Virus record (IMG/VR): IMGVR_UViG_2718217885_000009
Reading direction: 5' to 3' (one strand)
DNA length: 64,000 nt
Source of the DNA: a virus
Taxonomy: Duplodnaviria > Heunggongvirae > Uroviricota > Caudoviricetes
Part shown: one piece after another, positions 57,001 to 63,000 of the stretch
Layout: each line of letters opens with the position of its first letter
Position numbering within the stretch: position 1 is the stretch's first letter
Made by a program: the position numbers

Positions 57001-60000
57001 GCTCCCGGAACGTAGCAGCATGCTTCATCGAACAGATTTTCACGATGATTACCAAACGGTAATGGCATACAAAGTTTCTGAAGTCATCGATGCAATCCGC
57101 GCTACTGGCATTCGCATCAAAGGAGAGTGAGATGAACGGACAAATCTCAATTGTTCGACCAGGAGCATGTGACGATAGCGAGATACACATGATTATTCGT
57201 CTGGCGAGGGGGAAAACAATAACTGTTCTCACTACTCCAGAAAATCTCGCATTAGCATTAACAGGAAAGTCAGACCTGCCAGTAGAGCTAAAGCTGCGAA
57301 ATGTTGAGATTAAGGTGAAATAGCTATGACCACTTTTACCAAAGATCGACTGCTGACAATCCAGCATTGGCGCGAAACATACGGACCGGGTAGCAACGTT
57401 GTGCTTCCAGCAGAAGAAGCGGAAGAGCTGGCACGGATTGCGCTGGCATCGCTGGAAGCAGAGCCGGTGGCAAAGATTATAGCTCATTACCCATTAGGGG
57501 TTGACGTAGGCAAACAAAAATTCGTACAGGCCATTAGAGAGCTTCCTGACTTTGGCGGATATCTATTTGCCGCCCCTCCAGCGCCGATAGTGCCGGAAGA
57601 AATGTATTGGCAGGATGCGCCAGTTGAAGGCAGCAGCAAAGCGGCTGCATACGCTACAGGCTGGAACGATTGCCGCGAAGCCATGCTTCAGTCCGGAAAC
57701 TTTCGGGAAAATAAAGATTCGTCAACCAATAATTTTCGGAAAATCCCGGAAGCGTCAACCAGCTCTCCGGTAACTCCGGCTCTTCTGCCTGGTGGTTTCA
57801 CCATTGAGGAGGCGAAGGAATTACATGAAGACCTGGTACGCAGCCACATAAGCAAGGCCTTAAGTGGCGAAAAGATGAAAAAGAAAGATCGCGATGCTGA
57901 TTTGCGCTGGATTCATGGCGTTATAGTTCAGGCAGCGTGGTTTGTAAAAGCATCACTGGAGCAGAATGCACTATCGGGCAACTATCCGGTAACTCCGGAT
58001 AGTTGGATAAGCTGTAGTGAGCGAATGCCGAAAAAGAATCAGAACGTACTTATTTCGGTGAATTTCGATAGTGATCTGGTTGAGCCGCTAATATGCTCCG
58101 CACGCTATACCGGAAGCACCTTTCGGCGAGGAGAAGCAACGATTAAGCCGGGCAATGGTGTTGAGCAGGTAACACACTGGATGCCGCTACCAGAACCGCC
58201 GCAGGAGGTTAACCGTGGCTAACCTGCAACTTGCCGTCAAAGGTGAATACTTCGCAGATAGTTTCCCCCAAATCTGGGGAAAAGCCCGAATGGCGCGGCT
58301 TACAGCAAGATAAGGCCTACATGATTTGACAAATCCGCCAGAGCTATCGCATACTGACCGCACTAGAACTTCAAAGCGGTCATCCGCACCCGATAGCTTT
58401 GCGGCTTTTTTATGCCTGCAATTTGGCATAGTCACATCCGTACAAAGGTCGGGTGGAGAGGCGTAATACAATACCCGCAAGGGGAATATGCCCGGAGCAT
58501 CTTTGAAGGCTCTAGTTGACACCCGATCACCAGCCACTAACTGGTGATTGCTAACTAAAACTTCAAAGGAGGTCATCATGACCAGTCAACTCATCCCCGT
58601 ATTCAACGGCACTATCGACAACGAAACAATTCTTCTAGTTAACGCTCGTGAGCTACACTCTTTTCTTGGTGTGGGCAGAATGTTCGCGCACTGGGTTAAA
58701 GAGCGCATTGCTGAATATGGATTCGTTGAAAATCAAGATTTTGTTATTGCTTGCCAAAATTGGCAAGCAAAAGGTAGAGGCGGTCACAACCGCAAGGAAT
58801 ACCACCTCACCCTCGACACAGCCAAAGAGCTTGCGATGGTTGACGACTGCGTCCAATACTGACTATACTCCGCGCCGAGGCCTCGAAAACCTCCCAAAAG
58901 CGGATTAAACCAACCCCGTCAGTGTTGGATTTTTTATGCCTGTTATTCAGTGATAGCACAGTGTGCGGTCACATCCCCGATCAATGTCGGGAGGGCGACG
59001 AATACAACACCCGCAAGGGGAATAAGTCCGCGGTATCTTTTGGGCCGTTTCGAGCCTCCCGGCACCACATTTTGTGGTGGCATTTCTCGAAAAAAGCCAA
59101 AGGAGGTCATCATGACCACTCAACTCATCCCTGTGTTTGAAGGTACAATCTCAAATGAACCTACGCTTCTGGTGAACGCGCGTGATTTGCATGGATTTTT
59201 AGAGGTAGGTAAAGATTTTTCTAACTGGATACGGGCCAGGCTAAACGAGTATGGATTCGTAGAAAATTTAGACTACATTCTATTTTCGCCAAATTTGGCG
59301 AAAACTCCAGGCCGCCGCCGCAAGGATTACCACCTCACCCTCGACACAGCCAAAGAACTGGCGATGGTTGAGCGTAACGAAAAAGGCCGCCAGATCCGCC
59401 GATACTTCATCGAGTGCGAAAAGAAACTTCGCCAGAGCCTTTTACCTGCACCAATGAACATCAACTACCCTCTATCGTGGTTTTCAGAGCACCACCCCTA
59501 CTCCATGATGAGCTATGTTGATCGAAAAACTCTTAACCTGGACGTTTCTGTGCTCTTCGACATGCCAAGCCCAACTATGCGCATCCTCAATGAGCTACAC
59601 AGCAAAGGCTATAACGTTGACGCCGCTGTCGCTGAATTTAACGCCTTCAAGCATCTGACGGAAGAAATGCGCCGCACGCTACAGGATATTTCAAGATTGT
59701 CAGATCGAAATTCCCGAAAAGGCTTCTCGTTAAGCCTGTAACTTCCCCTACCATCCCCGACATCCCGTCGGGGTTTTCATATCTGGAGACAAAAATTTGA
59801 AACAGATCGCTTTCTACAGGCGTTCTGGAAGGCCCGGTGCCTTCCGTGGGTTAAAAGAACGCGTCACTTGGATGATTCAGTCTCGTGGTCGTCCTGTTAC
59901 TGGCAGTGAAATAGCAGAGAAATTTGGTGTTTCACTTTGCGAGTTCAACAAGGTAGCTCGCGGCCTGACAAAGGGCAGTAAGGTTGTGAAAATAAAGGCT

Positions 60001-63000
60001 TCAGAACCATTCACCACAGACACCGGAATCGTTGATCGCTTTTTCTCCCTCGAATCAAATCCTCGTCGTGACACACCTCGCTCACGCAATGCCGTTCCTC
60101 CATTCAGTCGCAGAAGCCGTGAACACGCAGCAAAAAACTGTCGCGAGGAATACGTGCAAAAGGCCGAACGCCGTCGCCGACTGATTAAAGCAGGACTTTA
60201 CATTGATGAGTTTGAAAACGCGCTATGACGAAAAAATACACCCTCATTTACGCAGATCCCCCCTGGACATTCCGCGACAAAGCAACCGATGGTCAACGCG
60301 GTGCAAGTTTTAAATATCCGGTCATGAGTCTTCTGGATATCTGCCGCCTCCCGGTATGGGAACTGGCAGCCGAGAATTGCCTGTTGGCTATGTGGTGGGT
60401 GCCTACACAACCACTTGAAGCATTGAAGGTTGTAGAAGCGTGGGGCTTTCGTCTGGTGACGATGAAAGGATTAACCTGGAACAAATGCGGGAAAAGACAG
60501 ACCGACAAGCTGGTCATGGGTATGGGTAGCACCACTCGCGCTAACAGCGAAGACTGCCTTTTTGCAGTGAAAGGAAATCTGCCCGAACGCATTAACGCCG
60601 GAATAATCCAGTCATTCACTGCACCACGCCTTGATCACTCCCGCAAGCCGGATATGGCTCGAGAAAAACTTGTGCAACTTCTTGGCGATGTTCCCCGGAT
60701 AGAACTGTTCGCCCGCCACACCTCGCATGGATTTGATGTATGGGGTAACCAATGCGGCACACCATCCATTGAGATGGTTCCGGGTATTGTTAAATTTCTG
60801 GAGAAAACCAATGAGCGAAAAAACGACGTTGACAAAGGCATCACCAGTTGAATTAAGGCAGTGTCTGGAAATCGCAAATCAACTTGCCAGAAGTGGAATA
60901 CGATTTGTTCCAATCCCGATTACAGCAGATGCAGAACTTCATCTGTTTGGTGAAATTCTTTCCCGAAAGCTGGATGAACTGGAAAAGCTGGTAGAAGAAG
61001 CTGACACCTCACCAACCGTATAACAGCCCCACCGACATTAAAATATCAGGAGAAAAAAATGAACGCAGTGCTCACAGAATTGAACAAATTAGGAAAAGCA
61101 TCAGCCGAAAGTATTTCTAAAGGTCTCAATATTGATTTGAATGACGTTATTGACACTCTATGGAAGTTAAAAAACCAGGGGGTAGTAACTGTAAAAAATG
61201 GCATCTGGCAGGCAGTTGCAAGGGAAGTGGACAAAAAACCAAATATCGCCTCAGTGCAGCCAGTGCAGCCAGTGCAGCCAGTGCAGCCAGTGCAGCACAA
61301 CATTATAGGCGACCTGCTACGTAAATCACGGAAAGAAGCGCGCCGCGCCGGGCGGAAACAGAAACGATGGGAGGGTGCATGTAAGGCGTTGCAAGAACTG
61401 AATAAATACCGTGACTTGATCAACGAATTGTCAGAGTGAGCGAATCACAGAGAGAATATTTTGAGAAACACCCCGCGTACATTAATATTGTTTTTCCTTT
61501 CTCTAATGACGGGCGGTATCCTGTTATTCGCAGGAACAACATTATTTATTTTTGTTGCCCGGCTAACTGCGAGGATAATGACATGAAAATCACATTTGAA
61601 AGTTACGGTTTAACAGCAAGTGTGGTTATATCCAGCTCTATATTCGAAAGCCGCAAACATCAGCATATCGTTGATGCAGTGAAACTCAAAGCCCCGGAAG
61701 TTACCGTCACAACACATGGACTTTTCAGGATACGAACGACGTTGACTACACACACCTCTCGGCATGCCGTGTTTATGATATGGCACTCAAGGAATACAAC
61801 CAGTGTTCGTCCTGATCCAGCGCGGGCAGTCTTTCGTTGATGCCAACAACTATCCGGTAGAAATATGCAAGGTAACTCTGACTCAGGTGATCTACCGAAG
61901 GCTCGACGGCAGAACCAGAGCCACTTCAATTGGTGCATTTAATGAAGAATTTGAGCGAATCGAGCACAACGAACTGCATATGATTAAAGCGGAAATTGAG
62001 AAGGAAAAGCATATTGCCAGCCTTCGAAAAATGCGCCGTACATCAATCAACTGACAACCGCCTTCGGGCGGTTTTTTCTTACACATGCAGAGGCAACTTA
62101 TGCGCGAGTTAGTAAACCAACATAACCATGGCATTCAGCCAGTCATCACACCTGTTGTACAGATAAATGCGAATGAATGGGTAACACTGGAGCTTTTAAT
62201 GGCTATAACAGGCCTAAGAAAAGGAACAATATTACGCGCCAGGGACAGTGCGTGGATGAACGGCAGAGAATATAAACAAATTGCCCCCGACGGAACGCCA
62301 AAGAAAAACAGCGAATGTCTCTATCATCTTCCTACCATCAACACTTGGATCAAAAACCAACCCTTACCATCTCAGGATGTTTAATTCTTGTCCATAAGAG
62401 TATAACCTGAGCGTGCTCTTGGACGCAGGAGGAACAATGGCGAATTCAGCCTATCCAGCCGGCGTTGAAAATCACGGAGGAAAACTCCGAATAACGTTTA
62501 AGTACAGGGGTAAACGAGTGCGCGAAAATCTTCGCGTGCCCGATACTCCGAAAAACAGAAAGATCGCTGGTGAGTTAAGGGCTTCTGTCTGCTTTGCAAT
62601 CAGAACGGGAACGTTTGATTATGCCGAGCGATTCCCTGACTCACCTAACCTGAAGCTATTTGGCCTGGTAAAAAAAGATATCACCGTCGGTGAACTGGCA
62701 CAGAAATGGCTTACTCTGAAAGCAATGGAAATCAGTAGTAACGCCTTAAATCGTTATCAATCAGTGATGAAAAATATGCTACCGAGGCTTGGTCCTGGCA
62801 GGCTGGCGTCATCGATTACAAAAGAAGATCTGCTGTTTATCAGGAAAGATTTACTGACCGGGGAAAAGGGAAGCAGGAAAACCAGCACGTCCCGAAAAGG
62901 AAGAACCGTACCCACAGTGAACTATTACATGACAACAACAGCCGGAATGTTCAGCTTTGCCGCCGAAAACGGGTATCTGGAGAAAAACCCGTTTAATTCA

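Follow-up and report, generated by a model that had tools for sequence, protein, structure and literature searches.

A methyltransferase gene of the MT-A70 family and its overlapping upstream gene in an Stx2 prophage correspond to the gp6-gp5 module described for phage PA8

The 64,000-nucleotide (nt) stretch of viral DNA analysed here (the window; IMG/VR record IMGVR_UViG_2718217885_000009, Caudoviricetes) carries on its + strand a pair of overlapping genes, a basic open reading frame (ORF) at 59797..60228 and an MT-A70-family N6-adenine methyltransferase gene at 60225..60851. The initial annotation had placed a DPPW-motif adenine methyltransferase at this locus, had given it a probable role in anti-restriction or epigenetic protection of the phage, and had left the upstream ORF unassigned. 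The locus raises the question of what this pair is and whether its substrate is RNA or DNA. All coordinates are given as positions in the window, and window proteins were checked against Pfam, PHROGs and PADLOC.

For identification of the pair, phage PA8 was fetched as KP682374 and its proteins were compared with those of the window. The methyltransferase was identical to M.EcoPA8orf6770P (M.ECPA8_3172P, gp5) in 207/208 residues, E50D being the sole, conservative change, and the upstream protein was identical in 143/143 residues to the product of the PA8 coding sequence 2851-3282 (gp6). The upstream ORF is therefore not unassigned: it is PNB-2, which has been described in print as the partner of this methyltransferase. 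The terminator sequence given for gp7/gp6 of PA8 (PMC10810198) was found letter for letter at 59744-59786, and the arrangement was that of PA8 (terminator, gp6 and gp5 in this order with an ATGA overlap, in an Stx2 phage, 5' of xis and int). The window differs from PA8 in the E50D exchange, in a gp7 counterpart with an AntA-type N-terminal domain and in a PstI-type restriction-modification (R-M) system that the prophage also carries. From the near-identical proteins, the terminator and the Stx2 prophage context it is essentially certain that the pair represents the gp6-gp5 module of Stx2a-converting lambdoid phages, and hence a pair that is already known and characterised, not a new one.

In PA8, gp5 was described as an MT-A70 enzyme with gp6 (PNB-2) directly 5' of it by Gong, Chakraborty & Koudelka (Nucleic Acids Research 2023; PMC10810198). 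In phage PA2, in which gp5 is disrupted by IS629, spontaneous induction and amoeba killing were lower, and the defect was complemented by the wild-type gene but not by a DPPW to APPA mutant (PMC10810198). Loss of either gene, or the DPPW to APPA exchange, lowered spontaneous prophage induction and Shiga toxin (Stx)-dependent killing (PMC10810198; preprint 10.1101/2023.09.20.558713); deletion of gp6 and then of gp6 and gp5 lowered induction and virulence progressively, and deletion of gp6 left transcription of the downstream genes unchanged (preprint 10.1101/2023.09.20.558713). The purified methyltransferase alone turned over S-adenosylmethionine (SAM) weakly and unspecifically with DNA or RNA, and on dam- DNA its activity was weak only (PMC10810198). 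His-tagged PNB-2 pulled down the methyltransferase, the two were cross-linked 1:1, and the complex preferred RNA over DNA more than 13-fold and favoured 16S ribosomal RNA (rRNA) in 30S subunits, RNA from lysogens being a poorer substrate than RNA from non-lysogens (PMC10810198). Nanopore signal differences were reported at 16S positions 832, 1098, 1100, 1132 and 1190, and protection of the ribosome from Stx was proposed (preprint 10.1101/2023.09.20.558713). For the window pair, the 1:1 complex and the preference for 16S rRNA and 30S subunits would be carried over from PA8, and SAM-dependent N6-adenine methyl transfer is likewise presumed from the literature on the 99.5% identical protein.

The methyltransferase (208 amino acids (aa), 23.5 kDa) matched PF05063 (MT-A70) over the full model (81 bits, E=1.3e-22, the cut-off being 23.9; residues 5-176 aligned with positions 1-172 of the 172 in the profile), in agreement with the initial family assignment. 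Its catalytic motif IV, DPPW (residues 11-14), was read from the sequence at 60255..60266; across 32 homologues P12 and W14 were invariant and D11 and P13 were conserved in at least 90%. PADLOC matched the protein to a type II methyltransferase model, and NCBIfam gave no match for the methyltransferase or for PNB-2. The protein was 99-100% identical in 112 phage records and ~99% identical to the enzyme of phiON-2011, the phage of the 2011 O104:H4 outbreak, in which the same PNB-2 gene lies 5'. M.EcoGII, the non-specific adenine methylase of O104:H4, was ruled out as its identity, being a 349-aa DPPY class-beta enzyme from another prophage. On phrog_359 (329 positions) the methyltransferase covers only 118-324, so that, judged from this profile, some phage members must have an N-terminal extension of ~117 residues, in which fusion searches gave no sign of PNB-2. 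At the C-terminus, the segment to about residue 190 (V.L.PG.A) was kept family-wide, with or without PNB-2, and the last ~18 residues, which overlap the DUF1382 gene, were lineage-specific. The last 27 residues have been proposed in the literature as an interface with PNB-2, a view that is qualified by this family-wide conservation. An AlphaFold2 model of the methyltransferase was obtained with a predicted local distance difference test (pLDDT) score of 66 and a predicted template modelling (TM) score of 0.66, the C-terminal 45 residues being of low confidence. In Foldseek searches with this model, METTL3 and MTA1 chains were matched alike (E ~1e-10, TM score 0.55-0.63). As the two fit equally well, the fold does not decide between RNA and DNA, and the amino acid sequence leans to the DNA enzymes.

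PNB-2 (143 aa, 16 kDa, pI 10.75, in keeping with the basic character noted initially) matched phrog_1680 end to end. The ORF is a real gene, because conservation among homologues (51-60% identity) spans the whole protein and takes in its first 25 residues, which are encoded only if translation begins at TTG. In an AlphaFold2 model built from 18 sequences (pLDDT 73), PNB-2 is predicted to form a winged helix-turn-helix at residues 19-85 and, beyond a basic linker without order (~90-104), a long helix near the C-terminus (105-131). Foldseek returned weak matches (E >= 5e-3), all of them double-stranded DNA (dsDNA)-binding winged helices (ZitR/MarR, TFE-alpha and ArsR). The family is small and was found in Enterobacteriaceae only, with 65 clusters in a set of 5.8 billion proteins and 65 representatives in an exhaustive profile search of 1.84 billion proteins. 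None of the 65 representatives was fused to an MT-A70 domain, all being stand-alone proteins of ~135-145 aa, and natural fusion was dropped as independent evidence for the partnership.

The PNB-2 gene starts with TTG, 8 nt 3' of a GGAG ribosome-binding site (59785..59788), and at its 3' end four bases, ATGA (60225..60228; junction ...GCGCTATGACG...), are common to its stop codon and the methyltransferase start codon, which accounts for the 4-bp overlap of the initial annotation. No Shine-Dalgarno sequence was seen 5-10 nt 5' of the methyltransferase ATG; together with the ATGA overlap this suggests that translation of the methyltransferase may be coupled to that of PNB-2. A TATGA junction likewise terminates 20 of 21 PNB-2 homologue genes. 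A Rho-independent terminator was located by a terminator scan at 59755..59782 (+ strand; GC-rich stem of 7 bp, CCCCGAC/GTCGGGG, 5-nt loop and T-run), between the upstream antirepressor-like gene and the PNB-2 gene. Only ~14 nt, with GGAG among them, separate the T-run from the PNB-2 start codon (window 59744-59800). Promoter consensus matches for gp6-gp5 were weak and at chance level, with none between terminator and start codon. A stationary-phase promoter for the two genes, for which the literature cites a personal communication, could not be located in the window sequence; given the ~14-nt gap it cannot lie between the terminator and PNB-2, and read-through or a start 5' of the terminator would be needed.

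The reading adopted is the published model of a two-subunit enzyme whose MT-A70 core is guided to 16S rRNA by PNB-2, with a rise in spontaneous induction as the result; it is favoured because of the direct experiments on identical proteins and is rated slightly better than even. The winged helix and basic tail of PNB-2 would provide nucleic-acid binding and the small MT-A70 core catalysis, and synthesis of the two subunits would be coupled at the ATGA junction. From the position of the genes in the leftward early operon toward xis and int, strong expression on induction and some expression in lysogen cultures would be expected. The catalytic subunit may retain a Dam-like GATC activity on DNA, visible when it is over-expressed alone, and the methyltransferase is not part of an R-M system: among its neighbours (PNB-2, the AntA-type gene, and DUF1382 through int) no nuclease or defence match was obtained with Pfam, PHROGs or PADLOC, in line with the initial statement that it has no partner endonuclease. 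Two heteromeric enzymes were compared with the proposed arrangement. In the ciliate MTA1c complex (MTA1-MTA9-p1-p2; PDB 7f4l, 7f4r and 7yi8), the catalytic MT-A70 subunit relies on distinct helix-turn-helix (HTH) subunits that bind nucleic acid, which sets a precedent; however, it requires the inactive MT-A70 paralogue MTA9, whereas in the window no second MT-A70/DPPW ORF and no catalytically eroded MT-A70 paralogue was found, and its accessory proteins are homeobox-like and its target is ApT in dsDNA, whereas a winged helix is predicted for PNB-2, so that PNB-2 and the HTH subunits of MTA1c would be analogous, not homologous. The human messenger RNA N6-methyladenine (m6A) writer METTL3-METTL14 shares the MT-A70 fold (Foldseek E ~1e-10, TM score ~0.6) and the DPPW motif and is likewise heteromeric, with a partner that provides RNA binding; its sequence similarity to the window enzyme is weak, however (E=1e-4), and METTL14 differs from PNB-2, a small winged-helix protein, in being an MT-A70 paralogue itself.

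The two-subunit model has to be weighed against a body of adverse findings on the assays, on related enzymes and on the distribution of the two genes. The evidence for rRNA as substrate is indirect: it consists of SAM consumption and of nanopore signals that differ between lysogen and non-lysogen but are unvalidated, no m6A position being chemically confirmed. M.EcoGV, the Stx-phage MT-A70 enzyme of O104:H4 (strain C227-11), methylates GATC in DNA in vivo when over-produced from a plasmid without PNB-2 (Fang et al. 2012, as cited in PMC10810198 and PMC6602927); it was assayed alone and scored as a GATC DNA methylase, unlike the two-subunit tests in PA8. The window DNA is 100% identical to the O104:H4 2009EL Stx2 prophages, and from the 99% identity to the phiON-2011 enzyme the window methyltransferase is inferred to be near-identical to M.EcoGV. 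The O111 methylome paper counts the homologues of M.EcoGV that Stx2 prophages carry as GATC enzymes indistinguishable from host Dam, and REBASE lists relatives as GATC enzymes (PMC10810198). For related strains, the check proposed initially, single-molecule real-time sequencing of a lysogen, is in effect available already and showed no extra motif, GATC being masked by host Dam. Serratia phage BZS1 p32, expressed alone in a dam- host, made DNA MboI-resistant and DpnI-sensitive while other m6A-sensitive sites were still cut (PMC7556043), and is thus proven to be a stand-alone GATC-specific DNA methylase; M.EfaBMDam of Tn1549 is also a GATC-specific MT-A70 DNA methylase that works alone (cited in PMC7556043). 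BZS1 p32 is 75% identical to HK639 gp35 (PMC7556043), an MT-A70 protein that is in turn 44% identical to the window methyltransferase over 195 residues, the alignment reaching the C-terminal tail. In the annotated pL operon of HK639, a 55%-identical PNB-2 homologue named 'regulator' is followed by a 55-aa ORF, the MT-A70 methylase and, further 3', int; unlike in the window, the 55-aa ORF separates the PNB-2 homologue from the methylase. BZS1 p32, HK639 gp35 and M.EfaBMDam share with the window enzyme the Pfam family, the DPPW motif and a similar size, and RNA activity is not among their reported properties, unlike those of the PA8 complex. In sequence comparison with the PDB, the top match of the window methyltransferase was the ciliate DNA 6mA methylase MTA1 (E=2e-12), with METTL3 at E=1e-4. 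On these grounds the physiological substrate could be DNA, with a Dam-like GATC methylase made from the early-left operon topping up methylation of fast-replicating phage or host DNA, PNB-2 as a DNA-binding accessory and the 16S rRNA preference as a side activity that a basic protein complex shows in vitro. The dsDNA-binding winged helices matched by PNB-2, MTA1 as a dsDNA 6mA methylase with separate HTH DNA-binding subunits, and the slot 3' of PNB-2 homologues, which holds at least seven unrelated kinds of DNA-modifying enzymes, fit such a role, and GATC m6A formation in DNA by the window protein may be expected from M.EcoGV over-expression, the in vitro DNA activity of the PA8 enzyme being weak. 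Yet the purified enzyme was weak on dam- DNA, the holoenzyme preferred RNA more than 13-fold and lysogen RNA was the poorer substrate; over-expressed Dam-like enzymes can methylate off target (PMC10810198), and the benefit of a second GATC methylase in a Dam+ host is unclear. DNA as the physiological substrate is accordingly rated as possible but on the unlikely side; the RNA and DNA models are not mutually exclusive.

The distribution of the two genes was determined in neighbourhood counts of contigs and loci that are non-dereplicated samples. The methyltransferase family is much larger than that of PNB-2 (1248 clusters at E <= 1e-10), with 60-89% identical proteins in Salmonella, Klebsiella, Serratia, Pantoea, Erwinia, Pectobacterium, Yersinia and others, and orthologues at 72-84% identity were found without PNB-2: an 84%-identical E. 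coli protein preceded by a PerC-like 83-aa ORF, a 79%-identical Salmonella protein in a nin region preceded by a theta-like 82-aa ORF, and the 72%-identical protein of phage Tyrion preceded by a 75-aa winged helix. These small ORFs were rejected as cryptic PNB-2, being mutually unrelated; a direct comparison with PNB-2, made for the Tyrion ORF alone, gave no significant similarity. An 89%-identical methyltransferase variant retains PNB-2. Conversely, PNB-2 homologues head a DNA-modification cassette, frequently with no MT-A70 gene nearby: in 19 species-representative genomes with a PNB-2 homologue, MT-A70 lay within 5 kb in 3/19 and was adjacent in one. The next sizeable genes after PNB-2 homologues encoded D12 Dam, PF05869 Dam, C5 methylases (several of them Dam-fused), N6_N4 and phrog_757 methylases, a DpdA-like transglycosylase (phrog_887) and DndB-like proteins, and three species-level PNB-2 loci were without any modification gene. 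On 55 viral contigs not of the type of E. coli that produces Shiga toxin (STEC), an MT-A70 gene (~44% identical) followed the PNB-2 homologue directly in 33 and farther 3' in 5; 15 carried other modification enzymes only, and 2 were too short to judge. On STEC-type viral contigs PNB-2 and the methyltransferase were adjacent in 25/25. For a control, loci were anchored on exo (YqaJ; 66 loci, each followed by 3 kb or more of downstream sequence). A modification cassette was present in 54/56 PNB-2-positive and in 10/10 PNB-2-negative loci, and any MT-A70 gene in 17/56 of the PNB-2-positive ones. A statistical tie between PNB-2 and DNA-modification genes was therefore rejected, the cassette being found regardless of PNB-2: the link is positional, with no evidence of functional dependence, and the PNB-2 family cannot be solely a partner of MT-A70 enzymes. 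PNB-2 might be mainly a transcriptional regulator of the early-left region or the DNA-modification cassette, controller-like, its co-purification with the methyltransferase being secondary. Its predicted winged helix-turn-helix is of the MarR/ArsR/TFE type, NCBI sources call it 'regulator', the cassette enzymes differ completely from locus to locus, MT-A70 genes are in the minority counts given above (17/56 and 3/19), and three species-level loci carry a PNB-2 homologue but lack any modification gene. This role is nevertheless considered improbable: co-purification, 1:1 cross-linking and the altered substrate preference were observed directly in vitro, the gp6 deletion did not alter downstream transcription in the preprint, and with the cassette in 10/10 loci devoid of PNB-2 no regulatory dependence is visible. 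The initially proposed solitary anti-restriction methylase, shielding phage DNA next to a functionally unrelated ORF, would agree with the lack of a cognate endonuclease, with the protective role commonly assumed for orphan methylases of phages and with the many kinds of DNA methylase at this cassette position in related prophages. It is thought very improbable, since the upstream ORF is a demonstrated binding partner, the sole reported DNA specificity, GATC, is already methylated by host Dam, and the known phenotypes are induction frequency and virulence, not plating on restricting hosts. The initial interpretation is partly supported as a whole. A role on DNA, at GATC, is kept as a possibility through M.EcoGV and related phage MT-A70 enzymes, although it would be a Dam-like activity in a Dam+ host rather than classic anti-restriction; protection of phage DNA is not supported by the published experiments on the 99.5% identical enzyme, in which a 16S rRNA preference and more induction and Stx-dependent killing were found. 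A broader view, that the PNB-2 family is a general component (DNA-binding accessory or regulator) of the DNA-modification cassette between exo and int and that in vivo GATC in DNA is the main or an additional target of the Stx-phage MT-A70 enzyme, is regarded as rather doubtful.

If this broader view were true, the published rRNA-methyltransferase assignment would need revision. The gp6-gp5 module affects spontaneous induction of the Stx2a prophage and hence the Shiga toxin released by an STEC strain, and gp6-gp5 is the first claimed phage-encoded rRNA methyltransferase, already published for proteins identical to those of the window. The value that remains lies in the question of RNA versus DNA as substrate and in the role of PNB-2 homologues beside C5, Dam-type and other non-MT-A70 enzymes.

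The cassette around PNB-2 homologues was seen as a hot spot of lambdoid prophages (loci L006-L029 and L055-L189), composed of exo, an optional PNB-2 homologue, a 50-55-aa ORF (phrog_1998/phrog_11492), one to three DNA-modification genes and a TraR/DksA-like zinc-finger gene; the modification genes belong to at least seven unrelated families, C5 and Dam fusions of 619-814 aa included. In the window, exo (52795-53484) is 84% identical to the anchor, and ~6.3 kb of extra genes precede PNB-2. In locus L018 (5575-6327; also in L057, L059, L074 and L090), the PNB-2 homologue and the small ORF are followed immediately by the gene for a 250-aa protein without Pfam match and with a strong match to phrog_887 ('queuine tRNA-ribosyltransferase', DpdA-like), which suggests that some of these prophages carry a 7-deazaguanine-type DNA modification in the slot after PNB-2.

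M.EcoVT2Dam, which is presumably a member of the PF05869 Dam family, and the Dam proteins of T1 or HP1 were rejected as relatives of the methyltransferase. No PF05869 homologue was found in the window, and M.EcoVT2Dam is listed apart from M.EcoGV in the O111 methylome paper.

The segment 59700-61100 showed 100% DNA identity to Stx2a prophages of E. coli O104:H4, O103:H2, O145:H28 and O157:H7 and was also 100% identical in phages P13771 and Ss-VASD and in many 'Stx2a-converting phage' records. In O104:H4 2009EL-2071 the identical gene string terminates at int beside wrbA, and the window is an Stx2 prophage integrated at wrbA. It carries stx2A (38330-39289, ribosome-inactivating protein domain), Q, NinG and cI (45394-46107) with an S24 peptidase domain. 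Downstream of the methyltransferase, the same + strand gene string ends with the excisionase gene xis (62085-62384) and the integrase gene int (62413-63747); the initial description of the methyltransferase as next to int is loose, since five genes intervene, namely DUF1382 (60811..61023, + strand, the first 41 nt of which overlap the methyltransferase 3' end), DUF1627, a 134-aa ORF (phrog_29320), DUF4222 and xis. Upstream of the terminator lies the AntA-type antirepressor-like gene (59112..59741, + strand), the counterpart of PA8 gp7 (PNB-1), with which only the C-terminal 103 residues are in common; as judged by this comparison, the C-terminal half as in PA8 and the different N-terminal half mark a mosaic junction. 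Two AntA-type N-terminal domains stand in tandem, one in a truncated 104-aa ORF (58548-58862, a RefSeq pseudogene) and one in the full gene at 59112-59741. Further upstream, a single 298-aa ORF (57326-58222) may represent two DUF551 genes fused into one; for this region of the identical O104:H4 sequence, RefSeq gives two partial pieces of DUF551 pseudogenes.

The PstI-type R-M system lies directly 3' of cI on the + strand, with the methylase gene at 46202-47671 (Eco57I-type N6-adenine methyltransferase domain, NPPY at 46607) and the BsuBI/PstI endonuclease gene at 47668-48621, and is of the M.EcoGIII type of the literature. The initial statement that the prophage carries two unrelated N6-adenine methyltransferases was thus borne out (MT-A70 with DPPW versus the PstI-type NPPY methylase near cI). 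In a separate count over window positions 1-64000, GATC occurred 178 times versus the ~248 that base composition alone, uncorrected for dinucleotide content, would predict (ratio 0.72), and CTGCAG, the site of the PstI-type system, occurred 16 times versus ~15.6 expected for a random hexamer. Within the DUF1627 gene (61059-61439), a 9-bp unit is repeated perfectly in tandem five times (CAGTGCAGC) at 61252-61296, encoding five consecutive VQP tripeptides (SVQPVQPVQPVQPVQH); its copy number may vary, the DUF1627 proteins of related phages being 114-128 aa long.

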